From positions 2,270,694-2,334,693 of the forward strand of contig OY730443.1 in NCBI GenBank assembly GCA_963422705.1: 64,000 bases of DNA, in the 5' to 3' direction. Shown one piece after another: positions 13,144 through 58,234 of this stretch. Below the pieces are notes generated by a model. The model was not told where the DNA came from, searched no databases, and saw only the letters and a program-made list of their open reading frames with translations. The stretch comes from Candidatus Poribacteria bacterium. GTDB taxonomy: Bacteria > Poribacteria > WGA-4E > WGA-3G. The position numbers and the translations under genes are program-made. The first letter of the stretch is position 1; every line of letters begins with the position of its first letter.

Positions 13144-13232
13144 TCCAATTGTTGTGTCTGCAGTAATTCGCCCGGAATGCTCTTTTTAAATACCGAGAAA
13201 AATGAACTTGTATGAGAAATATCCGAAATAAG

Positions 13233-14002: not shown

Positions 14003-14043
14003 CTTAATTATAAGGGGCACGAATTTTCGCATAGGCACGGTTT

Positions 14044-39890: not shown

Positions 39891-39930
39891 ATTCTCTGAA
39901 TTTCTGGTTATCGGGTTTCTAATCACATTA

Positions 39931-40192
39931 AAAATAAGGAACAACTAGAAGCTACACCGAAAGGGGCATACGCCATCACCGAAAACAGGGATAACCCTTT
40001 GGAAACCGACGTCATCTTTTTTCTCCGACACAGATAAAAAATATGGGAATTCATGGCACGCGCAGCTTTAAACTGACACCCGCGTTTCAAAAACCGAAAG
40101 ATGATAACGATTTTGAACTGGTAACGTGGCTCATTATTACAAAACCACCCTCATAAAACCAATGCCAAAAACAGCGCAAAAATAGGAACATC
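39931..40192 (+). other. Rearranged partial duplicate of the SNF2 helicase 3' coding end (junction relic of repeat unit 2)
   Basis: Matches 35516-35612 and 35878-36050 with the intervening ~270 bp deleted. Confidence 0.8.
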
Positions 40193-40727: not shown

Positions 40728-43700
40728 ATGAACAAAGAACACATCAGAAACGCACTCGCCGACATCCCAACAGGCAATCTTGTCCAAACCGCAAAAGCCC
40801 TCCTCGCGACGATGGGATACCGCAGCGAGCGGAACCTGGAACTCTCCGGAACCGTGGACGACTTTATCGAGAATTTCCCCACACGGGGACAAGAGGACAA
40901 AAAAGAACCTACCAAAACCGAACAGACATTTCGTAACACCGTTGAATCCATCTATGTCGTCTTTCAAATCACAGAAAATGAAATCAATCCTCAAGCCCAA
41001 CAGACAGTTGATTTTGCTGAAAAAAGTCTCGCCGAAAGTTTCTGCTTTTTCGCCGCCGATTTGAAAGAGAAGCCTACCTCCCGCAGCCGCTACGCCGAAT
41101 TGACACGGGAAATCAATAAGCGACTCTCTATCCCGGCGGTGGTGCTCTTTCGCACCGGGAACCGGTTGACAATTGGGGTTGCAGGACGCCGGCAACACCG
41201 CCGGAAATCGGGGCGCGATGTCATAGAACGGGTGACGCTCATCAAGGACATTCGCCTCGAAAATCCGCACCGGGCACACCTTGATATCTTGGCAGAACTC
41301 GCCCTCGGAGAATGCATGCAATGGATGGATGCCCACAAAAAACAGAGAAGCTTTGACGAACTCCTCGACACCTGGCTCGCTAAACTCGACACTGAAGAAC
41401 TCAATAAGCAGTTCTACCGGAGGTTATTCGCATGGTTTGAATGGGCAATCTCCGAGGCGACGTTCCCAAAAAACGAAAAGAAAATCTTAAAGCCCGAAGA
41501 ACACGTGATACGACTCATCACACGCATCCTGTTTATCTGGTTCTTGAAGGAGCAGGGACTGGTTGCCGATGCACTTTTCAATCAAACACAAATCCCTTCC
41601 CTTCTAAAAGATGACGATTTCGATAACGGAAGCTCCTACTATCGGGCCGTGCTACAAAATCTGTTTTTTGCTACACTGAACACCGAGATAAAGCAACGCG
41701 GTTTTAGCAGCAATACACCTACCGGGCATCGCGACTTCTCGCGTTACCGCTACGCAGCGGAAATACGCGCCCCTGAGAAACTGGTGGAACTCTTCGCGCA
41801 AACCCCCTTTGTCAATGGGGGACTGTTTGAGTGTCTCGATAGCGAGGAAGCAGCGATGCACGGCGGATACCGCATCGACTGTTTCTCTGATAAACACGGC
41901 AAAAAATTGTGCTTCCCCAACCGCCTCTTTTTTGATAAACACTGTGGACTCTTCCCCCTCCTCAATCACTACAAATTCACCATAGAAGAGAATATCCCGG
42001 TAGAACAAGAAGTCGCCTTGGAACCAGAATTGCTCGGGAAGGTGTTTGAAAACCTGCTGGCGGCTTACAATCCGGAGACGGGTACGACGGCGCGTAAAGG
42101 GACAGGCTCCTACTACACGCCGCGCGTCGTCGTCGACTATATGATAGACGAGATAGTGGTTGCAACCCTGGTAGAAAAGTGTCAGCCGTCCGATGGGGAC
42201 GCGACACTCTGGGAAGAACGCCTGCGCTACCTATTGGATTATGGGCAGACGTTTGACGATGCAAATGAATGGTTTGATGCCCCGGAAACCGACGCGATTG
42301 TGCGCACAATTTCGGAGCTGAAAATTCTGGAACCGGCCGTCGGTTCCGGGGCTTTTCCGCTCGCGATGCTCCGAAAACTCACGCTTGCCCTCCGCCGACT
42401 CGATTCGGCAAATCAACGATGGCAGCAGCTGCAAAGAAGACGCGCCGCACAGAGAGCGGAAGATGCCTTTGAAACCGACGATGACGAAGCGCGACGCGAA
42501 GAACTCATTGAAATTGATGAGACGTTCAGACGTTACCGGGATTCCGACTTCGGCAGGAAGTTATACCTCATTCAGAATAACCTTTTCGGGGTGGACATCC
42601 AACCCATAGCCTGCCAAATTACCAAGCTCCGCTTCTTTATCTCCCTCGCTATTGAGCAGAAACCGGCGCGGCATCTCGATAATTTCGGGTTCAAACCACT
42701 CCCAAACCTCGAGACGCGGTTTCTTGCCGCGAATACCCTTGTCCGGCTGCAAGGGCAACCCGAATTCGTAACAGTCCATATCCAAGCGTTAGAGCGGCAA
42801 CTCCGCGAGAATCGCGAACGGCACTTCCACGCCACCACCCGTCAGCAAAAGCTTGACTGTATTAGCAACGACAAAGCCATCCGCACAGAATTAGCCGCGG
42901 CATTAGAGGAACTCGGTTTCTTTGCACGGGACGCCCAAAACATCGCGCACTGGAACCCTTACCAGCAGAACGAGAATGCCGACTGGTTCGAACCGGAATG
43001 GATGTTCGGGATTAACGACGGGTTTGATATCGTGATGGGGAACCCGCCATATATTTCAGTTACGAAGATTCCTGCCCCGTTGAGGGATTACCTATTCGAA
43101 AACTATCAAACCTGTATAAAGAGAACAGATATCTATATCGCGTTCCTCGAAAGAGCCCTCTCCATTCTACAGCCGAACGGGATGATGTGTTTTATTCTCT
43201 CGTCGGCGTTTGCGAAACAGAAATATGGCGAAAAGATGCGCAGACGCCTCATAGAAAATCACGCCATCCGCGACATTGTGGATGCAAGCCGTTATCGGAT
43301 TTTTGAGAATGCGGCAGTACATAACATCGTTTTGCTGGTAGGCAATCAAAAAACAGATGTCGAAACGCGAATCCGATTGCATACCAGCAACGCGGATTTT
43401 GAGACACCGGGTGAGTGCGCATTTTCTATCAAGCAAGACGATTTTGCGGAACTGAAAGATGCCCGCCTTGAAACCGCTCCGAATATTCGTGAAAGTCTCA
43501 GGGTGAAAAAGAGGATATGGGAGCGCGCGGTGCGTTTCGATAAGATTTGCCTTGTCGCTTACGGCGCCAGGCTCAATTCCCCTTCAGCGGGAAAAAGAAA
43601 ACAGGATTACATCAGCGATGTCCGTCTTCCACGAGGTAAACGGTTTTGTGAAGGAAGAGACATTCGGCGTTATACGTTTTCTCAAACCGGATGGTTACGC

Positions 43701-44228
43701 TACTCGCCGAATGAACACTACAACTCGATGTTTCCAGAACTTTTTGAAACCGAAAAGTTGATGTTTCTCGGGATTGTAAAAGAGGGGTTGCGATGTGCTT
43801 ATGACGCCGAACGGTTCTACAATTGCAGCACGGTTATAAACTGTGTTCGCTTAGATTTACTTTCCGGTGCCTCTCATATCACAGCCCGCCGCGCAACGCA
43901 ATCTGCTGATAACAAATTCGTGAAGCGGTATGATTACAAATTTCTGTTGGGCGTTTTAAATTCTGGCGTCACAAATTGGTATTTCCGCAGCTTTTTAAGC
44001 GAGGGGTTACATTGTCACCCAAATGATGTAAAAGAGTTGCCTATTCCAAAAATGCCGCGCCAGCAGCAGCAACCGATTATTGGGTTGACATCTCACATTC
44101 TCGCGGCGAAAGCGGAGGATTCGGAGGCGGACGTCTCCGCTCTTGAAGCGGAGATTGACAGGCTGCTCTGCGCTTTCTACAACTTTACGCCGGAGGAGAT
44201 GCGTATCCTGGAGTGTAGGTGGGGATAA
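40728..44228 (+). CDS. Eco57I/PglX/DrmMI-like N6-adenine DNA methyltransferase (paralog 2, TRD variant)
   Basis: 1166 aa with the same motifs as paralog 1. Near-identical to paralog 1 except for clustered substitutions in the C-terminal ~250 aa (DVRLPRG, LGIVKEGLRC, SEGLHCHPND, YNFTPEEMRILECRWG). Confidence 0.85.
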   Translation: MNKEHIRNALADIPTGNLVQTAKALLATMGYRSERNLELSGTVDDFIENFPTRGQEDKKEPTKTEQTFRNTVESIYVVFQITENEINPQAQQTVDFAEKSLAESFCFFAADLKEKPTSRSRYAELTREINKRLSIPAVVLFRTGNRLTIGVAGRRQHRRKSGRDVIERVTLIKDIRLENPHRAHLDILAELALGECMQWMDAHKKQRSFDELLDTWLAKLDTEELNKQFYRRLFAWFEWAISEATFPKNEKKILKPEEHVIRLITRILFIWFLKEQGLVADALFNQTQIPSLLKDDDFDNGSSYYRAVLQNLFFATLNTEIKQRGFSSNTPTGHRDFSRYRYAAEIRAPEKLVELFAQTPFVNGGLFECLDSEEAAMHGGYRIDCFSDKHGKKLCFPNRLFFDKHCGLFPLLNHYKFTIEENIPVEQEVALEPELLGKVFENLLAAYNPETGTTARKGTGSYYTPRVVVDYMIDEIVVATLVEKCQPSDGDATLWEERLRYLLDYGQTFDDANEWFDAPETDAIVRTISELKILEPAVGSGAFPLAMLRKLTLALRRLDSANQRWQQLQRRRAAQRAEDAFETDDDEARREELIEIDETFRRYRDSDFGRKLYLIQNNLFGVDIQPIACQITKLRFFISLAIEQKPARHLDNFGFKPLPNLETRFLAANTLVRLQGQPEFVTVHIQALERQLRENRERHFHATTRQQKLDCISNDKAIRTELAAALEELGFFARDAQNIAHWNPYQQNENADWFEPEWMFGINDGFDIVMGNPPYISVTKIPAPLRDYLFENYQTCIKRTDIYIAFLERALSILQPNGMMCFILSSAFAKQKYGEKMRRRLIENHAIRDIVDASRYRIFENAAVHNIVLLVGNQKTDVETRIRLHTSNADFETPGECAFSIKQDDFAELKDARLETAPNIRESLRVKKRIWERAVRFDKICLVAYGARLNSPSAGKRKQDYISDVRLPRGKRFCEGRDIRRYTFSQTGWLRYSPNEHYNSMFPELFETEKLMFLGIVKEGLRCAYDAERFYNCSTVINCVRLDLLSGASHITARRATQSADNKFVKRYDYKFLLGVLNSGVTNWYFRSFLSEGLHCHPNDVKELPIPKMPRQQQQPIIGLTSHILAAKAEDSEADVSALEAEIDRLLCAFYNFTPEEMRILECRWG

Positions 44229-44268: not shown

Positions 44269-47200
44269 TGAAACGCGGGGTAACAAATTTTTTGTATGCG
44301 TGCATAAAAACTCGGTAAAAGATTAGCGGGACTACTATGTGAAAAGCGGCGCTTTAAAACTGTTTGTCTCACACTGCAATCTAAGTCGGATACCCACAGC
44401 TACACCCCAATGAACAAAGAACACATCAGAAACGCACTCGCCGACATCCCCACAGGCACTCTTGTCCAAACCGCAAAAGCCCTCCTCGCGACGTTGGGAT
44501 ACCGCAGCGAGCGGAACCTGGAACTCTCCGGAACCGTGGACGACTTTATCGAGAATTTCCCCACACGGGGACAAGAGGACAAAAAAGAACCTACTAAAAC
44601 CGAACAGACATTTCGTAACACCGTTGAATCCATCTATGTCGTCTTTCAAATCACAGAAAATGAAGTCAATCCTCAAGCCCAACAGACAGTTGATTTTGCT
44701 GAAAAAAGTCTCGCCGAAAGTTTCTGCTTTTTCGCCGCCGATTTGAAAGAGAAGCCCACATCCCGCAGCCGCTACGCCGAATTGACACGCGAAATCAATA
44801 AGCGGCTCTCTATCCCGGCGGTGGCGCTCTTTCGCACCGGGAACCGGTTGACAATTGGGTTTGCAGGACGCCGGCAACACCGCCGGAAATCGGGGCTCGA
44901 TGTCATAGAACGGGTGACGCTCATCAAGGACATTCGCCTCGAAAATCCGCACCGCGCACACCTTGATATCTTGGCAGAACTCGCCCTGGGAGAATGCCTG
45001 CAATGGATGGATGCCCACAAAAAACAGAGAAACTTTGACGGACTCCTCGACACCTGGTTCGCTAAACTCGACACCGAAGAACTCAATAAGCAGTTCTACC
45101 GGAGGTTATTCGCATGGTTTGAATGGGCAATCTCCGAGGCGACGTTCCCAAAAAACGAAAAGAAAATCTTAAAGCCAGAAGAACACGTGATACGATTCAT
45201 TACACGCATCCTGTTTATCTGGTTCTTGAAGGAGCAGGGACTGGTTGCCGACGCACTTTTCAATCAAACACAAATCCCTTCCCTTCTAAAAGATGACGAT
45301 TTCGATAACGGAAGCTCCTACTATCGGGCCGTGCTACAAAATCTGTTTTTCGCTACACTGAACACCGAGATAACGCGGCGCGGTTTTAGCAGCAATACAC
45401 CTACCGGGCATCGCGACTTCTCGCGTTACCGCTACGCAGCGGAGATACGCGCCCCTGAGAAACTGTTGGAACTCTTCGCGCAAACCCCCTTTGTCAATGG
45501 CGGACTGTTTGAGTGTCTCGATAGCGAGGAGGCAGCGATGCACGGCGGATACCGCATCGACTGTTTCTCTGATAAACACGGCAAAAAATTGTGCTTCCCC
45601 AACCGTCTCTTTTTTGATAAACACCGCGGACTCTTCCCCCTCCTCAATCACTACAAATTCACCATAGAAGAGAATACCCCGGTAGAACAAGAAGTCGCCT
45701 TGGAACCAGAATTGCTCGGGAAGGTGTTTGAAAACCTGCTGGCGGCTTACAACCCGGAAACGGGTACGACGGCGCGTAAAGGGACAGGCTCCTACTACAC
45801 GCCGCGCGTCATCGTCGACTATATGATAGACGAGATAGTGGTTGCAACCCTGGTAGAAAAGTGTCAGCCGTCCGATGGGGACGCGACACTCTGGGAAGAA
45901 CGCCTTCGCTACCTATTGGATTATGGGCAGACGTTTGACGATGCAAATGAATGGTTTGATGCACCGGAAACTGACGCGATTGTGCGCACAATTTCGGAGC
46001 TGAAAATTCTGGAACCGGCCGTCGGTTCCGGGGCTTTTCCGCGCGCGATGCTCCGAAAACTCACGCTTGCCCTCCGCCGACTCGATTCGGCAAATCAACG
46101 ATGGCAGCAGCTGCAAAGGAGACGCGCCGCACAGAGAGCAGAAGATGCCTTTGAAACCGACGATGACGAAGCGCGACGCGAAGAACTCATTGAAATTGAT
46201 GAGACGTTCAGACGTTACCGGGATTCCGACTTCGGCAGGAAGTTATACCTCATTCAGAATAACCTTTTCGGGGTGGACATCCAACCCATAGCCTGCCAAA
46301 TTACCAAGCTCCGCTTCTTTATCTCCCTCGCTATTGAGCAGAAACCGGCGCGGCATCTCGATAATTTCGGGTTCAAACCGCTCCCAAACCTCGAGACGCG
46401 GTTTCTTGCCGCGAATACCCTCGTCGGGCTGCAAGGGCAACCCGAATTAGTAACAGTCCATGTCCAAGCGTTAGAGCGGCAACTCCGCGAGAATCGCGAA
46501 CGGCACTTCCACGCCACCACCCGTCAGCAAAAGCTTGACTGTATTAGCAACGACAAAGCCATCCGCACAGAATTAGCCGCGGCATTAGAGGAACTCGGGT
46601 TCTCTGCACGTAACGCCGAAAACATCGCGCACTGGAACCCTTACGAGCAGAACGAGAACGCCGACTGGTTCGAACCGGAATGGATGTTCGGGATTAACGA
46701 TGGTTTTGATATCGTGATGGGGAACCCGCCATATATTTCAGTTACGAAGATTCCTGCCCCGTTGAGGGATTACCTATTCGAAAACTATCAAACCTGTATC
46801 AGGAGAACAGATATCTATATCGCGTTCCTCGAAAGAGCCCTCTCCATTCTACAGCCGAACGGGATGATGTGTTTTATTCTCTCGTCGGCGTTTGCGAAAC
46901 AGAAATATGGCGAAAAGATGCGCAGACGCCTCATAGAAAATCACGCCATCCGCGACATTGTGGATGCAAGCCGTTATCGGATTTTTGAGAATGCGGCAGT
47001 ACATAACATCGTTTTGCTGGTAGGCAATCAAAAAACAGATGTCGAAACGCAAATCCGATTGCATACCAGCAACGCGGATTTTGAGACACCGGGTGAATGC
47101 GCATTTTCTATCAAGCAAGACGTTTTTGCGGAACTGAAAGATGCCCGCCTTGAAACCGCTCCGAATATTCGTGAAAGTCTCAGGGTGAAAAAGAGGATAT

Positions 47201-47950
47201 GGGAGCGCGCGGTGCGTTTCGATAAGATTTGCCTTGTCGCTTACGGCGCCAGGCTCAATTCCCCTTCAGCGGGAAAAAGAAAACAGGATTACATCAGCGA
47301 AGCCCGTCTTGCAGGGCGCAAACGGTTTTGTGAAGGAAGAGACATTCGGCGTTATACGTTTTCTCAAACCGGATGGTTACGCTACTCGCCGAATGAACAC
47401 TACAACCCGATGTTTCCAGAACTTTTTGAAACCGAAAAGTTGATGTTTACCTGTATTGTGAATGAGCGGTTGCGATTTGCTTATGACGCCGAACGGTTCT
47501 ACAATTCCCACACGGTTATAAACTGTGTTCGCTTAGATTTACTTTCCGGTGCCTCCCATATCACCGCCCGCCGCGCAACGCAATCTGCTGATAACAAATT
47601 CGCGAAGCGGTATGATTACAAATTTCTGTTGGGCGTTTTAAATTCTGGCGTCACAAATTGGTATTTCCGCAGTTTCTTAAGCACAGGTTTAAATTGTTAC
47701 CCGGATGATGTAAAAGAGTTGCCTATCCCAAAAATGTCGCGCCAGCAGCAACAACCGATTATTGGGTTGACATCTCAAATTCTCGCGGCGAAAGCGGAGG
47801 ATTCGGAGGCGGACGTCTCCGCTCTTGAAGCGGAGATTGACAGGCTGCTCTGCGCTTTCTACAAGCTTACCGCGGAGGAGATGAGTATCCTGGAGCATGG
47901 GCGGGGATGAATTCTCTGAATTTCTGGTTATCAGGTTTCTAATCACATTG
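44269..47950 (+). repeat. Tandem repeat unit 3 (~3.7 kb)
   Basis: Only the last ~35 bp of the small gene remain upstream of paralog 3. Confidence 0.8.
44410..47910 (+). CDS. Eco57I/PglX/DrmMI-like N6-adenine DNA methyltransferase (paralog 3)
   Basis: 1166 aa and overall the most divergent copy, with substitutions scattered along its length. Its TRD patches resemble paralog 1. Confidence 0.85.
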   Translation: MNKEHIRNALADIPTGTLVQTAKALLATLGYRSERNLELSGTVDDFIENFPTRGQEDKKEPTKTEQTFRNTVESIYVVFQITENEVNPQAQQTVDFAEKSLAESFCFFAADLKEKPTSRSRYAELTREINKRLSIPAVALFRTGNRLTIGFAGRRQHRRKSGLDVIERVTLIKDIRLENPHRAHLDILAELALGECLQWMDAHKKQRNFDGLLDTWFAKLDTEELNKQFYRRLFAWFEWAISEATFPKNEKKILKPEEHVIRFITRILFIWFLKEQGLVADALFNQTQIPSLLKDDDFDNGSSYYRAVLQNLFFATLNTEITRRGFSSNTPTGHRDFSRYRYAAEIRAPEKLLELFAQTPFVNGGLFECLDSEEAAMHGGYRIDCFSDKHGKKLCFPNRLFFDKHRGLFPLLNHYKFTIEENTPVEQEVALEPELLGKVFENLLAAYNPETGTTARKGTGSYYTPRVIVDYMIDEIVVATLVEKCQPSDGDATLWEERLRYLLDYGQTFDDANEWFDAPETDAIVRTISELKILEPAVGSGAFPRAMLRKLTLALRRLDSANQRWQQLQRRRAAQRAEDAFETDDDEARREELIEIDETFRRYRDSDFGRKLYLIQNNLFGVDIQPIACQITKLRFFISLAIEQKPARHLDNFGFKPLPNLETRFLAANTLVGLQGQPELVTVHVQALERQLRENRERHFHATTRQQKLDCISNDKAIRTELAAALEELGFSARNAENIAHWNPYEQNENADWFEPEWMFGINDGFDIVMGNPPYISVTKIPAPLRDYLFENYQTCIRRTDIYIAFLERALSILQPNGMMCFILSSAFAKQKYGEKMRRRLIENHAIRDIVDASRYRIFENAAVHNIVLLVGNQKTDVETQIRLHTSNADFETPGECAFSIKQDVFAELKDARLETAPNIRESLRVKKRIWERAVRFDKICLVAYGARLNSPSAGKRKQDYISEARLAGRKRFCEGRDIRRYTFSQTGWLRYSPNEHYNPMFPELFETEKLMFTCIVNERLRFAYDAERFYNSHTVINCVRLDLLSGASHITARRATQSADNKFAKRYDYKFLLGVLNSGVTNWYFRSFLSTGLNCYPDDVKELPIPKMSRQQQQPIIGLTSQILAAKAEDSEADVSALEAEIDRLLCAFYKLTAEEMSILEHGRG

Positions 47951-48958: not shown

Positions 48959-49195
48959 ATGAAAACATTAACCCTAACCTTTTTCTTAACAATCGTCCTT
49001 CTCTTGTTGGCGGCCCCACTCTCTGATGGGCTTGAGACAGCTGGCGAAGCCACCTGCACTGGGAGTTGGTCCGGGACGACGGATTGGTGGTGGGAGTCTT
49101 CAGGTACCACAATCACAGAGAAGTGGGAATGGCGCGGACTCAACACGATGTATCCATATAGGGCAAAATCCGATAAAGAAACCAAACCTGAATAG
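48959..49195 (+). CDS. Small secreted Trp-rich protein
   Basis: Signal peptide MKTLTLTFFLTIVLLLLAAP. It starts 5 nt after the upstream stop and is followed by a terminator. Confidence 0.45.
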   Translation: MKTLTLTFFLTIVLLLLAAPLSDGLETAGEATCTGSWSGTTDWWWESSGTTITEKWEWRGLNTMYPYRAKSDKETKPE

Positions 49196-49219
49196 CGACA
49201 CTTTTTCTGTCAAACACAC

Positions 49220-49257
49220 GCGGGCACCCTCTCCACTGACAAGGTGCCCGCTTTTTT
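49220..49257 (+). terminator. Rho-independent terminator
   Basis: GCGGGCACC-N14-GGTGCCCGC followed by TTTTTT. Confidence 0.7.
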
Positions 49258-49502
49258 AGAAAGGCAGAAATCTTATTCTTTTGGGCTACCTACGACGCCT
49301 GTCTTCCACGAAGTAAACGGTTTTGTGAAGGAAAATGCATTGCGCGCTGTGCCCGTTTGTTACGGTAGTCAGATGCTTCGCGAAAACAGGGACATCCGTC
49401 CAACGTGAGATGCTGTCAGTCGGCGCGCATCGACATCAGAGCAAAGATTCGCAAGTTAGGCGGTGCCCGGCGGTTGAGCATCCGGTATTGCATGGCGAAA
49501 AA

Positions 49503-50273
49503 TTATGTTTTAATCACAAAGAATTTTTCCTCTTTAATCTGTTCTTCAGGAAATCGTGCGCGTGCCCAGATAGCCTTTGCATTCTCTATCATCTGCGGAT
49601 GTCCACATGCATAGACGACGGCGTTATTTGCATTAAAATCGTTGGCATCGCCATATTTCCGAATCACATCTTCAGCGCGTCCACTCTCCCCCGTCCATTC
49701 CGGTTCTTCCCAGGGGCGACTTACCGTGGGCACAAATGTGAACCAGTCTTCTTGTTCGGCGAGGGTGCTGAGTTCGTCCATGTAGTATCCAAGTTCCCAT
49801 GAATGGCTAGCGCCGACAATTGCGAGGATTTGATGGGGGCTGTTTTCGCCGCGTTCCTGCTCAATTTTTTGTGTGCGTGCGATGCTAATGTATGGTGCTG
49901 CGCCAGTGACAGTACCCGCCATCAGGTGCCGCGTCATTCCGGTTTCGGTGTCCAAAACAAATTTCCCGACGAGCTTTTCGCGGAAGAAGACACTATCGCC
50001 GAGGTTGAGCTCCCAAAAGCGTGGTGTGGTTTCGCCTTCTGGTACGAGTTCGACGAAAACTTCCATAAACGGTTCATGGGGTGAGGAAACAATGGAGTAT
50101 GGGCGTTGTACGATTTTTTCGCCGGCTTCAAAGCCGATAGTGGCGTATTGTCCTGCAATAAACGACAGGGTTTTCTCAGTACGAAACTTGAAGGCGGCTA
50201 AATCTTCGGAGAAGTCTTCGCGCTCAATGAGTTCCCCTTTACAATATCGCGCTCTTGCGCGTCTTCTTTGCAT
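49503..50273 (-). CDS. Ferredoxin-NADP+ reductase-family oxidoreductase (FAD/NAD(P)-binding)
   Basis: RPYSIVSSP (RxYS FAD-binding motif) and GTVTGAAPYISIA (NAD(P)-binding). Confidence 0.65.
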   Translation of the reverse strand: MQRRRARARYCKGELIEREDFSEDLAAFKFRTEKTLSFIAGQYATIGFEAGEKIVQRPYSIVSSPHEPFMEVFVELVPEGETTPRFWELNLGDSVFFREKLVGKFVLDTETGMTRHLMAGTVTGAAPYISIARTQKIEQERGENSPHQILAIVGASHSWELGYYMDELSTLAEQEDWFTFVPTVSRPWEEPEWTGESGRAEDVIRKYGDANDFNANNAVVYACGHPQMIENAKAIWARARFPEEQIKEEKFFVIKT

Positions 50274-50328
50274 AATAACTTCCTCTACAATATTGCGCTC
50301 TTGCGCGTCTTCTTTGCATAATAACTTG
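50241..50328. repeat. 46-bp tandem duplication spanning the start codon region of the FNR-like gene
   Basis: acaatat(c/t)gcgctcttgcgcgtcttctttgcataataactt x2. Confidence 0.7.
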
Positions 50329-50445
50329 CACTTTTTTCAGAACTTCGCGCCAAGAAGTTTTAGAACAGAAATCAAGAATTGATTGCATATCTGCATGCGT
50401 CTTGTTCATAATTATATCTGAAAACCGAATTTTTTGGTAACAAAA

Positions 50446-50489
50446 AAGGGAATTCTGTAGTAAATTAAAGGGAATTCTGTAGTAAATTG
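50446..50489. repeat. 22-bp tandem repeat (aagggaattctgtagtaaatt x2) in the divergent intergenic region
   Basis: Read directly from the sequence. Candidate operator or iteron. Confidence 0.6.
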
Positions 50490-50538
50490 CAAAAGAGCAT
50501 CCCGTTTTATTTTTAGTTAGGAGAAAAGGTTATAAATC

Positions 50539-51435
50539 ATGCGTCATTTTGAAGTGAAAGTGAATGCGAAAACACACTTAGTTGTTGAAAATGAGACTGG
50601 GCGGTGTTTAGGGGGCATCGGTTCTAATTTTTATCGCCCGTTTGTTTTTCCGTTCTACACCCCTGCTGGGCATACCGTGATTCAGGAGTTCGCGTTTGAT
50701 CATCCTTTTCATAACGGTATCTTTGTGGGGCAAGGCCCCGTCTCGGTAACTGACGAGCGTGAAACGCCGTCTGCTGCCTCCGGGGAGATAGGTTTGCCAA
50801 GGGCGGCGAACTTTTGGGCGTCGCCGCCGCGGCGTTCGTTTACAGACAAAATCTTCGCGAACCTCGGGCGGATGGATACTGAGAAAGCAATCGGCATCGT
50901 GCGCCACGCAGATGGTGTTAAATTCGTTCAGAAGGTTATCTGGCGTGATAAGGATGAGAACGCGCTAATCGATGAGATTCGCAGTGTAAATCTGTGGGCA
51001 CTCCGTGACGCGACAATCTGCGATGTGAGCAGCGAGAAAATAGCGACTTACGGCACCACAACCTATCCACAGACGAAGTATGGTAGCATCGGTATCCGGG
51101 TAGAACCGAGGTTGCTGCCGGTGATGGGCGGGACTGTTCTTGGCGACAATAACCGGGCTGGCAACGCCGATGTGGTTCATGAAAGCGATTCTGACTTTGT
51201 CGCGTATCAAAATCACCTCCCGGGGCACGGGGATTTCGGTGTCTTCATGACAATTCTGAACGAAGGGATTCGCGGCCCGTGGTTTATTCGGGATTACGGG
51301 ATGGCACTGTACAACCCTACGTGGCGTCAAACGATTTCGACAGCGGCCGGTGAGAGTTGGACAATCTCGCTTCGGGTTGTCGCGTATGATGGTGCCCTGA
51401 CTTCGGCACGAACGACGCGCTGGTGCCGGCCCTGA
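50539..51435 (+). CDS. Hypothetical protein, DUF6807/PmoA-like
   Basis: PAGHTVIQEFAFDHPFHNGIFVG resembles the DHxHHrGl motif of the PmoA-like family. Confidence 0.35.
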   Translation: MRHFEVKVNAKTHLVVENETGRCLGGIGSNFYRPFVFPFYTPAGHTVIQEFAFDHPFHNGIFVGQGPVSVTDERETPSAASGEIGLPRAANFWASPPRRSFTDKIFANLGRMDTEKAIGIVRHADGVKFVQKVIWRDKDENALIDEIRSVNLWALRDATICDVSSEKIATYGTTTYPQTKYGSIGIRVEPRLLPVMGGTVLGDNNRAGNADVVHESDSDFVAYQNHLPGHGDFGVFMTILNEGIRGPWFIRDYGMALYNPTWRQTISTAAGESWTISLRVVAYDGALTSARTTRWCRP

Positions 51436-51515
51436 TTTATGAAAGTGAACTGTGAAGCGGAATCTCAATGCAAGAAAATATTTTAGAACTCCGTGGGATA
51501 ACGAAGAAGTTTGGT
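51388..51515 (+). repeat. 128-bp direct repeat, left copy (3' end of upstream gene plus a truncated start of the ABC ATPase gene)
   Basis: Matches 54499-54626 with 3 mismatches. Confidence 0.85.
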
Positions 51516-52044
51516 ATCAGGAACGAAAAGCACTGACTGATGAATGTCTGGCATGATTCGACGAGCCTGATTCGCTTCAACCTGCTTTTTTTACTGTTTG
51601 TTTTCTATAAATGGTTGATAAATCCGTGAGAAAGTGTTAACATGTGAAGGTATGAAACACATCATAGACTTCATCGATGACTGCAAATTCTCTGCCAAAG
51701 GGTTTGAAAACCCGAAAGGAGCATTTACAATACTTTTGAAAATTTTACCTTCCGAACCTCAATGGGTTCTCGATGAGTGGGATGACAGCCAACCAGGAAC
51801 CTGGGATGACAGCCAACCATGAGCCATTGATGAGTTTCTCAACCTTCCATATGATAGAGGATTGCCAGGAACGCTACACTCCTTTGATTCGGTTTGCCAT
51901 CAAAGCCGTAATCCCAATCACTCCCGTTCGTGTCAAACAATCTCCTGTTCGGACGCGGACAGACTCGGACAAAGAAATACTTTCTTTATCCGAAGACACG
52001 CGGAAAGAATAACAACTGGATATATCCAACAAGGAGAAATCGAC

Positions 52045-52875
52045 ATGTTGAAAGCTTTGCGTCTAACCATTTTTGGGAACATACGGACATTTATAGTCTT
52101 CCTGGCTATATTTATCCCGACGTTCCTGTTAGTATACGGGCATCAGCAGGCAAAACAACGGCAAGAAAGACAAGCAAGCATCCCTGACGAATTGCAGCAA
52201 CTGGATGCGGAAGCCAAAGCCGAAGTGTTACGACGAAAAGTGGAAAAAGAAAAAACCGAACCCAGCACCCCAAGTCTGGAACTCACAGGTCAGGCTTCCC
52301 CTATAGAAGGGTTTCAGGAAAACACCCAACCGCCATCCACTGAAAATGTGGCGGATGTGGAACGCATCTCCTCGGGGCCCCACAAAGGCATGACGTTGCA
52401 AGAATCCTACGCAGCCTCGAGAAAAGAGCGCGCGGAGGCCAAGAATGCCGTTAGAAAGCACCACGAATGGCACCTGCAAGCGAAAGCGTTAGATAAAAAA
52501 CTGATAGCCGCTTCAAGGAAATCAAGAGCCATCGCCCGCGCAGTTCTTGCATCTGCGGATGCGGAACTCTCCGCTGTGCTGGATGTTTATGCGCTCATGT
52601 CCGATGAACAGCTCAAATATGCGAGGCAGGAAGCTTTGAAAACGCTGCCTGCCGACAAAGTCGAACGCTTTTTCAATGACTTAGCTAACCATAAAGCCAA
52701 CGACACCACAAAAACTCACGAACAGATTTCCCAAGATGCCAAAGACATCCTAAGGTCTCGAGAAGCTCGTAGGATTGCAAGCAGGGAAGTGGATGTGGAA
52801 TTTGAACAAATTCGGCAAGAGATAGCCGAACACAACCGTAACATGCCGCCTGACCCCTTTACGCAGCAACCATAA
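52045..52875 (+). CDS. Membrane-anchored coiled-coil protein
   Basis: RBS AGGAG upstream of the ATG at 52045. N-terminal TM helix, then a long charged helical region. Confidence 0.5.
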   Translation: MLKALRLTIFGNIRTFIVFLAIFIPTFLLVYGHQQAKQRQERQASIPDELQQLDAEAKAEVLRRKVEKEKTEPSTPSLELTGQASPIEGFQENTQPPSTENVADVERISSGPHKGMTLQESYAASRKERAEAKNAVRKHHEWHLQAKALDKKLIAASRKSRAIARAVLASADAELSAVLDVYALMSDEQLKYARQEALKTLPADKVERFFNDLANHKANDTTKTHEQISQDAKDILRSREARRIASREVDVEFEQIRQEIAEHNRNMPPDPFTQQP

Positions 52876-52920
52876 CGAAAGCGATAAGGGGGCGGCAACT
52901 CGAAATCGAGGTTTATTTTT

Positions 52921-53256
52921 TTGAAACGTTACAGAGCATTTACGTTTTTAGCGTCTATTTCCTTATTAGTCTGCTTAGTCTTTATAGGTATTGCACACGA
53001 AAGCGAAAGACACCGCTTACAGACAGAGGTGCAAATGGAAAAGAAAGATGTCGAGGATGCAAAGAAAGAGGTTAGGAAGCTTGAGGACAAAGGATACGCT
53101 CGGGCCATAGGTGATGGAATGACGACAGGCATGCTTACTGGTATCGGTGGTGGTATTGCCACGGGGGCACTTCTTGGTAACCTCCCGGCGGCCATTACAG
53201 GGGGTGCCAGTGGTGGCGTTGTTGGTGGCGTTGCTGGTAGTATTGCTGTGGTATGA
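52921..53256 (+). CDS. Glycine-zipper (2TM) small membrane protein
   Basis: GMTTGMLTGIGGGIATGALLGNLPAAITGGASGGVVGGVAGSIAVV; TTG start. Confidence 0.45.
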   Translation: MKRYRAFTFLASISLLVCLVFIGIAHESERHRLQTEVQMEKKDVEDAKKEVRKLEDKGYARAIGDGMTTGMLTGIGGGIATGALLGNLPAAITGGASGGVVGGVAGSIAVV

Positions 53257-53450
53257 ATCACTACAACAACCTCAAAGATGCGAGGGAGGATTTGGAGGAG
53301 GAAGAGGAAGAGTTAGAGCAGGCAGAGAGGGAATTAGAGGATTACGACTATGAGAATAGCGAGTATAAACAGAGTTGTTCCTCTTGCGGTGGCAGATGGA
53401 CATTCTCTACGTACGATGCCTACATGAACTTCTATCACGATCATCAGTAA
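53253..53450 (+). CDS. Small acidic protein with CxxC
   Basis: 65 aa, poly-Glu, CSSCGG. Overlaps the upstream stop. Confidence 0.35.
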   Translation: MNHYNNLKDAREDLEEEEEELEQAERELEDYDYENSEYKQSCSSCGGRWTFSTYDAYMNFYHDHQ

Positions 53451-53472
53451 AGTGCGTCCTTGACGACTTTTA

Positions 53473-54231
53473 GTGGATGCCACAGGGGTTCCTTGTCGTG
53501 TCCCTTTTTACTTTACCAAAGGGTTTGAAAACCCGAAAGGAGCATTTACAATCCTTTTGAAAAAGTTTTACCTTCCGATTGGTATTCTGATAGTTGCGCT
53601 CTGTGCAGTCGGTTTATTCTTGTTGCGTTCCGATGTGCCAGAGGAACCGATTGTGATTCACAAGCCGACAATCACGGAAACGCCATTAAAGGTTACCGCA
53701 GCAGAGGAAACCGCTCAAGAGAAATTTGATCGCGAGATGCGAGAAAAAATGGCTCTTAAGGAACAAGAAATCGCCAAATACAAGGAGAAAACCGCCAAAT
53801 ACAACGATGAAACCGCCAAATACAAGGAGAAAACCGCCAAATACAAGGAGAAAATCGCCAAATACAACGATAAAACCGCCAAATACAACGATAAAACCGC
53901 AGCCATTCGTGCTGAGTTTGAAGCACTCAAGGCGAAAGATGCTGAACGGACAGAATACCTTTCCCGTATTACAGAGAAGGGCAAAGAGTTTGTAGCTCAA
54001 TTCCCGGATATGCTGGAGATGACACCTGAAAAGTATCTTGCATTATCCGAAACGGAGCAGGAAAAATTCCTTTTGCGTTGCGTTGAATACGATTTATTGA
54101 TAGAAAATATTCAAGAAATAATCAATTCAATGCCTCAATGGATTCTCGATGAGTGCGATGACAGCCAACCAGGAGCCATTGATGAGTTTCTCAACCTTCC
54201 ATCGCTAACAGAATTATACGGGAGTCTATAA
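53473..54231 (+). CDS. Membrane-anchored protein with six AKY(K/N)(E/D)(K/E)T heptad repeats
   Basis: TM helix IGILIVALCAVGLFLL. The heptads are encoded by a 21-bp x6 tandem repeat. The true start is probably TTG near 53556, after the RBS AAAGGAG. Confidence 0.45.
   Translation: MDATGVPCRVPFYFTKGFENPKGAFTILLKKFYLPIGILIVALCAVGLFLLRSDVPEEPIVIHKPTITETPLKVTAAEETAQEKFDREMREKMALKEQEIAKYKEKTAKYNDETAKYKEKTAKYKEKIAKYNDKTAKYNDKTAAIRAEFEALKAKDAERTEYLSRITEKGKEFVAQFPDMLEMTPEKYLALSETEQEKFLLRCVEYDLLIENIQEIINSMPQWILDECDDSQPGAIDEFLNLPSLTELYGSL
53773..53898 (+). repeat. 21-bp x6 in-frame tandem repeat (gccaaatacaa(g/c)ga(g/t)(a/g)aaacc)
   Basis: Read directly from the sequence. Encodes the AKYKEKT/AKYNDKT heptads. 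Confidence 0.8.
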
Positions 54232-54233
54232 AC

Positions 54234-54443
54234 ATGAAAAATATCAATTTTGGAACACTCTTTTTAATACTTCTGTTAGTGGGCATTTTCTCGTTTGCAA
54301 TGGCAGCGGATAAAATTCAATGTATCCACTGCGGTAGCTGGGACATTCCTGGACAGCACGATTGCCCAGACGTTCAAAAAGCGACGAAGAAAGCCGAAGA
54401 AGCAAAGAAGAAAGCCGAAGAAGCAACGAAGGAAGCCGATTGA
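54234..54443 (+). CDS. Small secreted Lys/Glu-rich protein
   Basis: Signal peptide MKNINFGTLFLILLLVGIFSFAMA, a Cys pair, and KKAEEAKKKAEEA repeats. Confidence 0.4.
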   Translation: MKNINFGTLFLILLLVGIFSFAMAADKIQCIHCGSWDIPGQHDCPDVQKATKKAEEAKKKAEEATKEAD

Positions 54444-54498
54444 AAAAGACATGCGCCACTACGAAGCCTATCAGGTTATCTGCCTCGGTGAAGAGAGC

Positions 54499-54626
54499 GA
54501 TGGCGCCCTGACTTCGGCACGAACAACGCGCTGGTGCCGGCCCTGATTTATGAAAGTGAACTGTGAAGCGGAATCTCAATGCAAGAAAATATTTTAGAAC
54601 TCCGTGGCATAACGAAGAAGTTTGGT
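54499..54626 (+). repeat. 128-bp direct repeat, right copy
   Basis: Contains the functional start of the ABC ATPase gene (ATG 54579). Confidence 0.85.
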
Positions 54627-56138
54627 TCTCTGGTTGCGGTTGATAACGTGAATTTTGAGTTGAGAGAGGCCGAAATTCACGCGATTTTGGGTGAGAATGG
54701 CGCTGGAAAGTCAACGTTGATGAATCTGATTTATGGGCTTTATCAACCGTCGCGTGGTGACATCTATGTTTCCGGTGTCCGGCAAATTTTCCGTTCCCCG
54801 CGGGATGCGATTTCCACCGGCATCGGGATGGTGCATCAACACTTTATGCTGATTGAGAATTTGACTGTCGCCGAAAATATTGCGTTAAGCGTTAAGCCGT
54901 CGGCGCGCAGCCCCGCGAATCGTTTATCCGTCCTGCTAGAAAAATATCGCTTTAAGCATGCCGAGGCGGTGAAGACGACGGAAGCGCTTTCGGAACAATT
55001 TGGTCTTTCTGTGAATCCAAGCGCCGTCGTCAGGACGCTTTCTGTCGGGCTCAAGCAGCGCGTTGAAATCCTCAAGGCGCTTGCGATGGACGCGCGAACG
55101 CTTATACTTGATGAGCCGACGGCGGTGCTGAGTCCACAAGAAGTCGAAAGATTGTTCAGCATTCTGCACAACCTGAAAGCAAATGGCCGTTCTATTATCT
55201 TAATCAGCCATAAAATGAAAGAGGTTTTGCGGATGAGCGATAGGATTACGGTGCTGCGTCGGGGAAAAAATGTATATGTGGGTAAAACAGGGGAATTGAC
55301 AGCCCGTGAACTTGCGCGTGAGATGCTGGGTGAAGAGGTAACAGAGGTTGTTCGAGAAGCGCATTCTGCGACGACAGCGGGCGTGCTAACCATTACTCGC
55401 CTGTTCGTTCCGGGAAGTCGCGGCGAATTCGCCGTTGCCGGAGTCTCTCTGGAAACAAAACGCGGTGAAATTGTCGGGATAGCCGGCGTTGATGGCAATG
55501 GACAACGTGAATTGGCAGAGGCAATTATGGGGCTGCGAAAAAAGGCAGCCGGAACAATAGAGATATTAGGAACTGAACGGAAACGAACTAAAACCGTTCG
55601 TCTGCTCGGGGTAGGCTATATTCCGGAGGATAGGCAGACAACAGGTGTCATCCCTTCATTTTCAATTGCAGAGAACCTATTGCTGAGTGTCGCGCACTTA
55701 AAGAGACACAGTTGGTGTGGAATCCTGAGTGAGAAGCAGAAACGCGAAACGGCTGAACGTTTGATTGTAGACTATGATGTTCGTCCGCCTGCGATTCATG
55801 TAGCGGGCGCTACGCTTTCGGGTGGTAACCAGCAGAAAGTCGTGCTTGCCCGGGAATTGTTCCACGGTGAAGGAGCGGGGCCGGAGCTTCTCATCGCGGT
55901 TAACCCTACGCGTGGTTTGGATGTGAGCGCGACGAGCGATGTGCATCAGAATTTGCTGGCGCAACGTGAGAGAAACAAATCGGTACTGTTAATTTCAACA
56001 GAGTTAGACGAGGTGCTTCAGTTGAGCGACAGGCTCTATGTGATGTCCCAAGGAAGATTATATGAAGCAACGGAGCACCGTAACGATATAGGCGCGCTTG
56101 GCTTATTGATGACAGGAGAAACAGGTGCGGCTGTCTGA
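54579..56138 (+). CDS. ABC transporter ATP-binding protein with two NBDs (BMP/nucleoside or sugar-type)
   Basis: 519 aa. Two Walker A/ABC-signature sets: GENGAGKST with LSVGLKQRV, and GVDGNGQ with LSGGNQQKV. Confidence 0.85.
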   Translation: MQENILELRGITKKFGSLVAVDNVNFELREAEIHAILGENGAGKSTLMNLIYGLYQPSRGDIYVSGVRQIFRSPRDAISTGIGMVHQHFMLIENLTVAENIALSVKPSARSPANRLSVLLEKYRFKHAEAVKTTEALSEQFGLSVNPSAVVRTLSVGLKQRVEILKALAMDARTLILDEPTAVLSPQEVERLFSILHNLKANGRSIILISHKMKEVLRMSDRITVLRRGKNVYVGKTGELTARELAREMLGEEVTEVVREAHSATTAGVLTITRLFVPGSRGEFAVAGVSLETKRGEIVGIAGVDGNGQRELAEAIMGLRKKAAGTIEILGTERKRTKTVRLLGVGYIPEDRQTTGVIPSFSIAENLLLSVAHLKRHSWCGILSEKQKRETAERLIVDYDVRPPAIHVAGATLSGGNQQKVVLARELFHGEGAGPELLIAVNPTRGLDVSATSDVHQNLLAQRERNKSVLLISTELDEVLQLSDRLYVMSQGRLYEATEHRNDIGALGLLMTGETGAAV

Positions 56139-57216
56139 TTTGAGTGCTGTTAGCAAGATGTTTTCTAGTCCGAGATTCTTGAAATACTTAACGATGCCGG
56201 CCCTGATTCTGTTAAGCGCGTTTGCTACCAACGCCGTTATCATCATCGTGTGTGGGTATAACCCGTTATCTGCGTTTGCGGCGGCGATGGATGGTGCGTT
56301 CGGTAACGGGCGTAAACTAGGCGAGACATTAGTAAAAAGCACGCCGTTTCTGATGACGGGGCTTTCCGTTGTGGTTGCGTTTCGATGTGGTATCTGGAAT
56401 ATCGGCGCGGAGGGGCAGTTTCTGATTGGTGCCTTGGCCACGACGTGGTTTGGGACGCGCCTCGCGGCGCTGCTTCCTGCGACAGGGTGGGTGGCGGTGC
56501 CTCTCGGCCTGGCATTCGGCGCCATCGCAGGCGGCATCTGGGGGCTATTTCCGGCAATCTTAAAAGTAATCCGCGGTGTGAATGAAGTGATTAGTACGAT
56601 TATGTTAAATTATGTCGCGCTCTATTTGGTGAGCCTGATGGTGGATGGTGGCCCGCTCCAAGAGGTAACACAGCGCGGGCCGCAAAGCGACAGGTTATCG
56701 GAATGGGTATTTCTGCCCCGGCTTTTCCCCCCGCACCGCATCCATCTCGGTATTGTCATCGCGATTATTTTAGCAATTGTGCTGGCATTCGTCCTATTTC
56801 GGACAATCTATGGCTATCAACTCCGTGCTGTGGGTGAAGGTGAAGCGGCCGCGGAAGCAGCCGGTATTTCTATTTTTCAGAATACCCTCCGGGTTTTCTT
56901 CATCAGCGGGGCATTGGCAGGGTTAGGCGGCGCGATTGAATTGATGGCGCTGACACGCCGCCTCTTCCCAAATTTCTCACCCGGGTACGGCTACACCGCT
57001 ATTGCCGTGGCGCTGCTTGCGAAATTGCATCCCCTGTTAACAATTGGTTCCGCTTTTTTGTTTGGCACATTAACAACCGGCTCGTATGCGATGCAACGGG
57101 GCACCGGTATTTCCGACAAAGTCACGTTTGTGATGCAAGCGACGCTCCTTCTCTATGTGATTGGGTACAGTTCGATTAAAATGGATTTTTGGTCAAAAAT
57201 AAATACGAAAAGATGA
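56125..57216 (+). CDS. ABC transporter permease (BMP-family/branched-chain type)
   Basis: 363 aa, multi-TM. Its start overlaps the ATPase gene stop. Confidence 0.8.
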   Translation: MRLSDLSAVSKMFSSPRFLKYLTMPALILLSAFATNAVIIIVCGYNPLSAFAAAMDGAFGNGRKLGETLVKSTPFLMTGLSVVVAFRCGIWNIGAEGQFLIGALATTWFGTRLAALLPATGWVAVPLGLAFGAIAGGIWGLFPAILKVIRGVNEVISTIMLNYVALYLVSLMVDGGPLQEVTQRGPQSDRLSEWVFLPRLFPPHRIHLGIVIAIILAIVLAFVLFRTIYGYQLRAVGEGEAAAEAAGISIFQNTLRVFFISGALAGLGGAIELMALTRRLFPNFSPGYGYTAIAVALLAKLHPLLTIGSAFLFGTLTTGSYAMQRGTGISDKVTFVMQATLLLYVIGYSSIKMDFWSKINTKR

Positions 57217-57218
57217 AG

Positions 57219-57300
57219 TTGCATAAGAAATCTCCGACGAGATTTTCCCAGGCGTCACAAAAACAGAAGAAAATCAGCACACTGCACACGACGAAAACAA
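57219..57300 (+). repeat. ~82-bp repeat-family element occupying the intergenic space between the two permease genes
   Basis: GTTGCATAAGAAATCTCCGACGAGATTTTCCCAGGCGTCACAAAAACAGAAGAAAATCAGCACACTGCACACGACGAAAACAAG. It starts 2 nt after the upstream stop and ends at the next ATG. Confidence 0.75.
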
Positions 57301-57301
57301 G

Positions 57302-58234
57302 ATGTTTGAAGATATTCTTTCGGCGACAATTCGAGGTGCGACTCCGCTGCTGCTGGCAGCGTTAGGTGAAGTGATTTCACAGCGCGCCGGGGTTATTAAT
57401 ATCGGTATCGAAGGCATGATGCTTATCGGTGCGTTTTTTGGGATGGTAGGTTCTTTCACCGCGTCGGACTTGGGCATGCTTTCTCCGTGGATGGGGTTGC
57501 TCCTTGCGGGGTTAAGTGGTGTTGTTACAGCCTGCATCTTTGCGTTCGTGGCGATAAAACTTCGCGGTGACCAAGTGATTATCGGCACGGCGATGACACT
57601 GCTAGCCTTAGGATTGACAGAAGTCGTCTATCAGCGGCTTTTTGGTGTAACAGGTAGCGCGCTCCGGGTGCCTGCGTTCAAAACGTTAGAGATTCCGTTT
57701 CTGTCGGAGCTCCCGTTTGTAGGGGTTTCTCTATTTTCGCACAACATTCTCGTGTTCATGACGTTTTTGCTGGTTCCGTGCGTATATGTGTTTCTGTACC
57801 AGACGCGTGCGGGGCTGATGATTCGCGCGTGTGGAGAACATCCGAAGGCAGTTTCAGCCGTGGGTGGCAATGTCGTATTATTGCGAGCGGGGTGTCTCTT
57901 ATTTGCGGGGATGATGGCCGGGATGGCGGGTGGCTATCTTTCGTTAGCGGATGTGCCGTATTTTACCCCGGGGATGACGGTTGGGCGCGGGTTTATTGCG
58001 TTAGCGATTGTGATTTTTGGGAAGTGGCATCCTGTGAAAGCCTGTGGTGCGGCGTTACTCTTCGGACTTGGGAGTGCCCTGGATGTCCGCATTCAGGCGT
58101 TGGGTTGGCACATTCCGTACCAATTGTTATTGATGCTGCCTTATGTGTTGTGCTTAGGCGTGCTTGCGGGCTGCGTTGGACGCGCGGATGCGCCGCTCGC
58201 ACTAGGAAAACCGTATCCTAGCCCATCGGAATAA
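57302..58234 (+). CDS. ABC transporter permease (BMP-family/branched-chain type), second subunit
   Basis: 310 aa, multi-TM. Confidence 0.8.
   Translation: MFEDILSATIRGATPLLLAALGEVISQRAGVINIGIEGMMLIGAFFGMVGSFTASDLGMLSPWMGLLLAGLSGVVTACIFAFVAIKLRGDQVIIGTAMTLLALGLTEVVYQRLFGVTGSALRVPAFKTLEIPFLSELPFVGVSLFSHNILVFMTFLLVPCVYVFLYQTRAGLMIRACGEHPKAVSAVGGNVVLLRAGCLLFAGMMAGMAGGYLSLADVPYFTPGMTVGRGFIALAIVIFGKWHPVKACGAALLFGLGSALDVRIQALGWHIPYQLLLMLPYVLCLGVLAGCVGRADAPLALGKPYPSPSE

Follow-up and report, generated by a model that had tools for sequence, protein, structure and literature searches.

The stretch analysed here, a 64,000-nucleotide window within a 4,001,648-bp contig of a Candidatus Poribacteria metagenome-assembled genome (MAG), holds a 3-kb islet of DNA bracketed by two long direct repeats at the junction between a DUF6807-family gene and an ATP-binding cassette (ABC) importer operon. 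The two 128-bp repeat copies (51388-51515 and 54499-54626, plus strand) are 125/128 identical (blastn E 6e-58), start 3,111 bp apart and enclose a 2,983-bp insert (51516-54498); their three mismatches lie at 51393 (T/C), 51414 (G/A) and 51497 (G/C). On the left, an intact DUF6807-family gene (50539-51435, plus strand, 298 aa; Pfam PF14100, E 2.4e-30) runs into the first copy, which contains the last 15 codons and stop of that gene (51388-51435), a 32-nt spacer (51436-51467) and codons 1-16 of the ABC ATPase, MQENILELRGITKKFG (51468-51515). As read from the sequence, six further codons follow the left copy before a stop, giving a 22-aa stub open reading frame (ORF; MQENILELRGITKKFG + IRNEKH*, 51468-51536, plus strand), which residues 1-16 of the ATPase match at 100% (tblastn). 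The right copy supplies the spacer with its ribosome-binding site and codons 1-16 of the functional 519-aa ATPase, which is intact (54579-56138) and followed by two BPD_transp_2 permeases (56125-57216 and 57302-58234; all plus strand, Pfam and NCBIfam). The target duplication leaves a truncated stub on the left and a complete ATPase on the right, with both neighbour genes undamaged. An initial annotation, made from the sequence alone, had already described these repeats, the left stub and the intact right gene, and blastn and direct reading bear it out, including the 32-nt spacer and the first 16 ATPase codons.

The species is represented by one sample only (run ERR11641160), so that all comparison genomes are other species. 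A one-genome-per-species scan with the DUF6807 protein yielded 80 loci, nearly all titled Candidatus or uncultured Poribacteria (two are titled 'uncultured bacterium' only), across which the DUF6807 orthologues are 64-78% identical. In the 78 loci having both genes, the ATPase orthologue directly follows the DUF6807 gene with a gap of ~0-190 bp, the DUF6807 stop often being adjacent to the ATPase start, and the importer gene order (ATPase, then two permeases) is common to 75-79 related loci. Synteny with the closest relative, L004, extends over both flanks, with an FNR-like gene upstream, the ATPase and permeases downstream, and a gap of 39 bp. None of the islet genes was found nearby in the DUF6807 loci of relatives. 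The uninterrupted junction that the initial annotation had proposed to look for is present in 78 other Poribacteria species and, because the DUF6807 gene abuts the ATPase gene there, the insert is a lineage-specific insertion into a conserved operon junction. The same adjacency of DUF6807 stop and ATPase start in most relatives makes it a reasonable inference that the importer operon has been displaced from its original promoter, as the initial annotation had claimed.

One larger DUF6807|ATPase gap, of 615 bp, was found in locus L021 (OZ240248.1), where the junction holds a different gene encoding a ~149-aa transmembrane (TM) protein (10840-11440); this small gene is equipped with promoter-like and terminator-like sequences of its own, and no duplication flanks it. 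The junction has thus been used at least twice independently and is a recurrent landing place for small membrane-protein genes.

An assembly artefact, either a false duplication or a chimera of strain haplotypes, has to be weighed here, as the genome is metagenome-assembled and its species is carried by a single sample. The Logan contigs, retrieved by exact-protein look-up, provide an independent k-mer assembly (k=31) of ERR11641160. Contig L001 stops at 51444, 30 nt past variant site 51414, contig L002 begins at 54578, 30 nt before variant site 54608, and contig L003 spans 51702-53545 at 100% identity, being bounded likewise by a repeat internal to the insert (B'/B, described below). Because the contigs break 30 nt from the copy-specific variants, both repeat variants are present in the reads, with a shared core at which the assembly branches. 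The junctions 51515/51516 and 54498/54499 were not recovered in any independent contig, a point in favour of an artefact, and hybrid repeats are beyond the reach of 31-mers since the variant sites are 83 nt apart. Nevertheless, the Logan assembly breaks precisely where two diverged copies predict, the stretch 51702-53545 is reproduced without a difference, the locus is interior to the 4.0-Mb contig, three differences set the copies apart, and the 3.2 kb of repeat unit plus insert is a short length for the long reads probably used. We consider an artefact very improbable, and the assembly duplication that the initial annotation had named as fatal to its reading is not what the breakpoints indicate.

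Five ORFs that have homologues, together with one remnant, make up the gene content of the insert; all lie on the plus strand, co-oriented with the operon, in the order repeat, 175 bp, B', module A, module B with p69, 55 bp, repeat. Its GC content is 45.7% against 48.2% for the window, its GC3 is also near that of the host, and its tetranucleotide distance is only ~2.3 sd above the window mean. Module A (51851-53510) begins with p276 (52045-52875; 13 homologues, 38-61% identity; 98 representatives in a 50%-clustered library), a protein with a TM helix at its N-terminus, joined by a disordered linker to a conserved, all-helical C-terminal domain. Its AlphaFold2 (AF2) model has a mean predicted local distance difference test score (pLDDT) of 77, rising to ~86-96 over residues ~111-270; a structure search with this model returned no fold match at E<=0.001, and no match to p276 was found in Pfam, PHROG, PADLOC or NCBIfam. 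The two following ORFs, p111 (52921-53256; TM segment, coiled coil and glycine zipper) and p65 (53253-53450; acidic coiled coil and CxxC...H.H), are the halves of one ancestral gene, the second of module A, split by a 1-nt deletion: in a DNA alignment this deletion creates the GTATGA stop/start overlap between them, and in locus L087 a single 195-aa ORF directly after the p276 homologue aligns to both. Contig L003 is 100% identical across p111/p65, and the fused homologue, when used as query, returned only itself.

The first gene of module B (5' untranslated region (UTR) and p252, 53511-54231) has nine homologues of 129-226 aa, eight of them of 214-226 aa, which all start with ML(x)KKFYxPIG. 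The conserved 5'UTR consists of a GGGTTTGAAAACCC hairpin followed by AAAGGAG, and alignment with L092 places the real start of p252 at 53551/53557, with a product of ~224-226 aa that comprises a TM helix, a long coiled coil and a helical C-terminal domain (AF2 pLDDT 81); a structure search with its AF2 model returned no fold match. Tandem 21-bp repeats encoding KTAKYKE-like heptads lie inside p252 (53747-53935, plus strand). The second gene, p69 (54234-54443), encodes a signal-peptide-like N-terminus, a CxxCG...HDCP motif and KKAEE repeats, and p69 homologues are found directly 3' of p252 homologues in L092 and L089-L091. The remnant B' (51690-51850) is a decayed copy of module B, ~95% identical to 53511-53578 and 54133-54202, which retains the 5'UTR hairpin, the Shine-Dalgarno sequence, the start (as ATA) and the first ~8 codons joined to the last ~30, and which also carries a 24-bp tandem duplication with a stop. 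The family ATG is lost in both module B leaders (ATC at 53551 in p252, ATA at 51731-51733 in B'), both of which still have a strong AAAGGAG, 7 nt before the lost start, and a TTG two codons after it (53557 in p252); this may reflect a non-canonical start or the beginning of decay. The list of small genes in the initial annotation is essentially right, except that p111 and p65 derive from one split gene, that its sixth gene is the B' remnant and that p252 does not start at 53473.

Module A is flanked by a duplication of module B, truncated on the left (B') and complete on the right (B), and this B'-A-B topology is the same as that of the outer repeat, islet and repeat. Elsewhere the modules occur separately, module A alone in L087 and in L084-L086/L088, and module B alone in L089-L092, with neighbours such as a Type ISP restriction gene, a DDE transposase and ordinary metabolic genes; flanking repeats comparable to those of the islet were not seen around modules A and B in other Poribacteria. 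Protein searches with p276 and p252 found no cargo paralogue on the same 4.0-Mb contig, and in a cluster look-up every protein of the locus, with p276, p252, p111 and p65 for the islet, formed a singleton at 90% identity. Scans of the cargo families against Pfam, PHROGs, PADLOC and NCBIfam gave only sub-threshold coiled-coil/glycine-zipper noise. Altogether, the cargo consists of two unrelated, uncharacterised modules restricted to Poribacteria-like genomes, which encode TM-anchored helical proteins and small secreted CxxC...HxC peptides. The mini-motif CxxCG-x(4-12)-H-(D)-CP recurs in small secreted proteins beside p252 homologues (window 54309-54365; L092 7730-8220; L090 11053-11190), a related Y-D-Y...CxxCG...Y..YM...DH motif is shared by p65 and a 68-aa ORF of L092, and in L090 a 69-bp motif-encoding unit is perfectly duplicated in tandem; such peptides may form a Poribacteria-specific zinc-knuckle or disulfide family. 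The 55 bp before the right repeat were tried as the 5' end of a deleted second DUF6807 gene (MRHYEA... vs MRHFEV...) and set aside as a probable chance match, with 12/18 nt matching, no likeness past six residues and this N-terminus in none of the 80 orthologues.

Several kinds of mobile element could in principle account for such a structure. No integrase, transposase or excisionase domain was found in the five called ORFs or in ten alternative-frame ORFs of the insert, in agreement with the initial annotation. The best end-to-end inverted match of the insert is no better than that of shuffled sequences, and its joints are sharp, without extra matching bases. An Rfam scan of 49000-56000 gave no match. 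The searches of the small proteins against phage and satellite databases and by structure that the initial annotation had suggested produced nothing: family profiles of p276 and p252 found no relatives among IMG/VR viral contigs, the islet had no match in INPHARED or PLSDB by DNA or protein, PHROGs gave sub-threshold coiled-coil noise alone where phage genes were sought, and no fold match emerged. The p276 profile had no match in metagenomes, and a 26-mer of the repeat core, used to seek conspecific strains, was not found there either. The attributes of a prophage or satellite, or of a transposon, insertion sequence (IS) or miniature inverted-repeat transposable element (MITE), were not observed. 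With a transposon or IS the islet shares a directly duplicated target that exactly flanks the insert, but it differs in the 128-bp length of the duplication, the lack of terminal inverted repeats and the lack of a transposase. Target-site duplications of transposons and IS measure ~2-15 bp and come with a transposase and element termini, and we know of no transposase that duplicates anything approaching 128 bp, so that the initial annotation was right to call the repeat far too long for transposition.

The 128-bp repeat was also considered as a genomic interspersed repeat, and rejected, since the sequence aligning with it in L004 is the orthologous coding junction. Across 1.68 Mb of Poribacteria loci, the dispersed repeats otherwise found lie between genes, are palindromic and resemble MITEs or repetitive extragenic palindromic (REP) elements (e.g. 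L010 7389-7486, L036 11641-11696, L078 2626-2746). In the window, a family of ~84-nt intergenic repeats, 75-82% identical, occurs at 10738-10821, 13228-13311 and 57214-57297, the last of these between the two importer permease genes, with related or opposite-orientation copies at ~13799-14011 and 15650-15888.

The islet could also be a remnant of a site-specific integrative element, or one mobilised in trans, with the repeats as attL and attR and the integrase deleted or supplied from elsewhere, which was the first suggestion of the initial annotation. Direct repeats do exactly bracket the insert and reconstitute both gene ends, and the empty site exists in relatives (other species); such an element would have brought a replacement operon junction, as e14 brings a replacement icd 3' end. 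In Escherichia coli, insertion of e14 (and phage 21) in icd leaves an icdC pseudogene (PMC13626634, citing Hill et al. 1989), and icd/icdC differences are largely synonymous or conservative (PMC13626634). In both e14 and the islet, insertion occurred within a coding region, the element side supplies the replacement gene end, the gene stays functional and the displaced copy persists as a direct repeat on the opposite side. The anatomy of the islet most resembles, in our comparison, that of e14 in icd with its icdC pseudogene, but lacks integrase and prophage: e14, a prophage of 15 kb, encodes its integrase and excises on SOS induction, whereas the islet is 3 kb without a recombinase or a phage gene, and its duplication, unlike that of e14, spans a gene 3' end, a spacer and the 5' end of the next gene.

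Islands without a recombinase are also on record. The H47 genomic island of E. coli, which encodes microcin H47, has no recombinase gene, is flanked by extensive imperfect direct repeats, has empty sites in other strains, and excises and integrates by RecA-independent host functions with crossovers in several identity blocks (PMC3191183, PMC5426353). The islet likewise combines the lack of a recombinase gene with long imperfect flanking repeats, and H47 shows that an island of this kind can still excise, in favour of an att-type element (PMC3191183, PMC5426353). It differs in that H47 is a 13-kb unit of coherent function, found in several strains and with mobility shown experimentally, while the islet is known from sequence alone, its repeats duplicate an operon junction and its mosaic cargo is never seen as a unit. 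Internal deletions in the islet (B') make the loss of an integrase module conceivable as well. However, no fragment of an integrase or excisionase is present in any frame, the 3 kb are nearly filled by five ORFs of families that are elsewhere separate, non-mobile and without repeats, there is no homology to phage, satellite or plasmid, the islet is single-copy in its genome, the target is neither a tRNA nor another typical att locus, and the gene that entered this junction in L021 is a different one, with no repeat around it. Neither an element-encoded integrase (or its remnant) nor recurrence as a unit was observed. We regard an att-type origin as the main rival reading, possible but doubtful; with a cargo that is no recurrent unit, no phage or plasmid relatives and no recombinase fragment, that suggestion of the initial annotation is unsupported or unproven, and the duplication-insertion event it gave as an alternative fits the evidence at least equally well.

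All three differences between the repeat copies are synonymous, third-codon changes, of which the DUF6807 tail has two, the ATPase head one and the spacer none. When all substitutions are enumerated, the probability of 3 of 3 synonymous changes is ~0.006-0.036 if the segment was duplicated in place and its non-functional halves drifted. The outgroup L004 agrees with the right copy at 3/3 variant sites, which polarises them weakly at such divergence. The pattern modestly favours (n=3, suggestive) the view that the copies were once functional alleles of different strains and that incoming DNA brought another strain's junction. An att-type element could be read from it as well, as if both copies had evolved as coding sequence, in the manner of icd/icdC at e14 (PMC13626634). 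The same synonymous pattern could also have arisen later by conspecific recombination into the left flank.

We favour, with a probability of about 0.5, a host-mediated insertion-duplication of a passive islet, by a Campbell-type crossover or a template switch rather than by an element-encoded integrase. The structure is what such an event predicts, with the insert exactly between the target copies, a stub and an intact gene, and no element-specific ends. Approximately 3 kb of Poribacteria-type chromosomal DNA, comprising modules A and B and a decayed B copy, would have been placed into the DUF6807-ABC junction by a single event that both brought the insert and duplicated 128 bp of target; two separate events, a 128-bp tandem duplication first and then an insertion precisely at its joint, are implausible. 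In route (i), a circular DNA bearing one copy of the junction would have integrated by a single homologous crossover. In route (ii), replication would have switched template at 51515, continued over 2,983 bp of donor and returned to the operon at 51388, 128 nt behind the point of exit, the outcome being a tandem duplication with a templated insertion at the joint. We infer this mechanism, as we do the transcription and instability of the islet considered below. The host-mediated origin is preferred over an att-type element because of the lack of any recombinase trace, the partly decayed cargo that does not form a unit, the nested topology and the other duplications of the window. Near-host composition, non-unit cargo, absence of a recombinase and of phage or plasmid relatives, and the presence of a pseudogene remnant lead us to view the islet as a piece of Poribacteria chromosome and not as a streamlined element, and a pseudogene remnant together with a frameshifted gene in the moved block fits what is expected of a random chromosomal fragment.

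Both routes have known counterparts. Campbell-type insertion-duplication arises when a circular DNA such as a suicide plasmid integrates by one homologous crossover, and its topology is identical to that of the islet: a truncated and a complete copy, with the insert between repeats of arbitrary sequence and length. It is a laboratory situation, however, and a natural circle carrying the islet and the 128-bp junction was not found. Template switching by fork stalling and template switching or microhomology-mediated break-induced replication (FoSTeS/MMBIR) has been described mainly in eukaryotes and in E. coli amplification systems and predicts microhomology at the joint. The islet shares with it a duplication of arbitrary length, foreign or ectopic sequence at the joint and the lack of a recombinase and of terminal repeats, and this genome shows many simple tandem duplications. 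The synonymous-only differences weakly speak against route (ii) and suit route (i), or an att-type element, better.

Several points weigh against a host-made insertion. Neither the window and the related loci nor collections of metagenome, viral, plasmid and phage sequences yielded a donor locus with the B'-A-B arrangement, which leaves no reference against which microhomology at the joints could be scored. A circle with both island and junction presupposes an earlier event of like kind. To our knowledge, no bacterial enzymology accounts for a 128-nt staggered target duplication, and islands flanked by duplicated gene ends are classically integrase-made.

Other recent duplications of similar identity in the window have ends that fall in gene ends, and the tandem copy number of the p276 homologue varies in a close relative. 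Close to the islet, a 46-bp tandem duplication (96%, 50236-50327) lies in the start region of a minus-strand FNR-like gene (49503-50273), and a perfect 22-bp tandem duplication (50445-50488) in the divergent intergenic region upstream of the DUF6807 gene. Three tandem genes of 1166 aa (36390-39890, 40728-44228 and 44410-47910; 97-98% DNA identity) encode Eco57I, N6_Mtase and TaqI_C domains, as in Type IIG-like restriction-modification enzymes, downstream of a SNF2/ResIII helicase gene (33412-36015). The spacer between copies 1 and 2 (features 39930-40338 and 40193-40663) contains duplicated helicase 3'-end pieces and a methyltransferase-fragment ORF. Over a ~54-nt stretch (39278, 43616 and 47298) the identity of copy 2 to copies 1 and 3 falls to 87%, and related sequence is found a fourth time at 49293-49346; this divergence may reflect specificity-domain diversification.

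These tandem arrays bear on another explanation, in which the islet marks the leftover of a larger tandem duplication that started at 51388 and included the importer operon, its first copy being mostly replaced or deleted until 128 bp were left. The genome does make tandem segmental duplications starting within the 3' end of an upstream gene (the 1166-aa genes, with the helicase fragments at 39930-40338), and the 97-98% identity of the duplicates is similar to that of the 128-bp repeat. Still, this would need at least three events, namely a duplication, a deletion and the acquisition of 3 kb exactly at the joint; the insert holds no second importer copy or remnant of one, and the origin of the islet DNA would be left unexplained. 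We judge it unlikely.

A broader proposal is that Poribacteria undergo recurrent, recombinase-independent (or trans-acting) cassette insertion that copies ~100-700 bp of target and regenerates the downstream gene. Its outcome would be seen twice at this locus, nested, as the outer repeat and as B'-A-B, and gene-end fragments in locus L084 may be another case, but we hold the proposal to be improbable at present. In L084 (OZ244048.1, closest relative), a ~240-bp segment (2562-2803) composed of the 5' end of a 219-aa gene and a copy of a VWA gene 3' end recurs 8-9.4 kb away as two pieces (10657-10758 and 12116-12251, 92-94% identical) flanking a TPR gene. Two p276 homologues in tandem and a Type ISP restriction gene lie in the region between. 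L085, which comes from the same sample, differs in its left flank and carries a single p276 homologue; L088 offers a further comparison. This arrangement may represent a second gene-end duplication around a variable islet.

As to its present state, the islet would be co-transcribed with the operon, both by read-through and from promoter-like sites within it, while parts of it decay. The right repeat restores the 80 nt upstream of the ATPase start as well as the first 16 codons, and the translation signals of the ATPase are therefore likely unchanged. A consensus scan found a promoter-like site near the left end of the insert (TTGATA-17-TAACAT with TG, 51615-51643, plus strand; a sequence match alone) and further ones in the B' and B leaders (51704-51731 and 53525-53552), and found no terminator-like site between p69 and the ATPase; for these reasons the importer is probably transcribed by read-through. 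The islet would be cleanly removable by recombination between the 128-bp repeats, which, being 3 kb apart, should delete it at an appreciable rate. Its persistence despite 2.3% repeat divergence suggests selection, slow recombination, or copies that were allelic at birth. An excised circle would read ...GAAGAGAGC-[repeat]-ATCAGGAACG... across the joint.

The islet is a further case of a known kind, a small recombinase-less islet flanked by duplicated target, and a single event in one MAG has limited importance by itself. It nevertheless offers a clean natural case of foreign or ectopic genes that entered a conserved operon with the neighbouring genes undamaged and no mobility gene. If our favoured reading is true, such genes would be gained by long target duplication through host recombination or replication, and the 128-bp repeats would make these gains reversible. 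Recurrence of the signature in complete Poribacteria genomes would suggest that uncultivated symbionts gain accessory genes by a route so far under-appreciated, and if insertions of this type proved recurrent, they would amount to a general mechanism of scar-free operon invasion in sponge symbionts.

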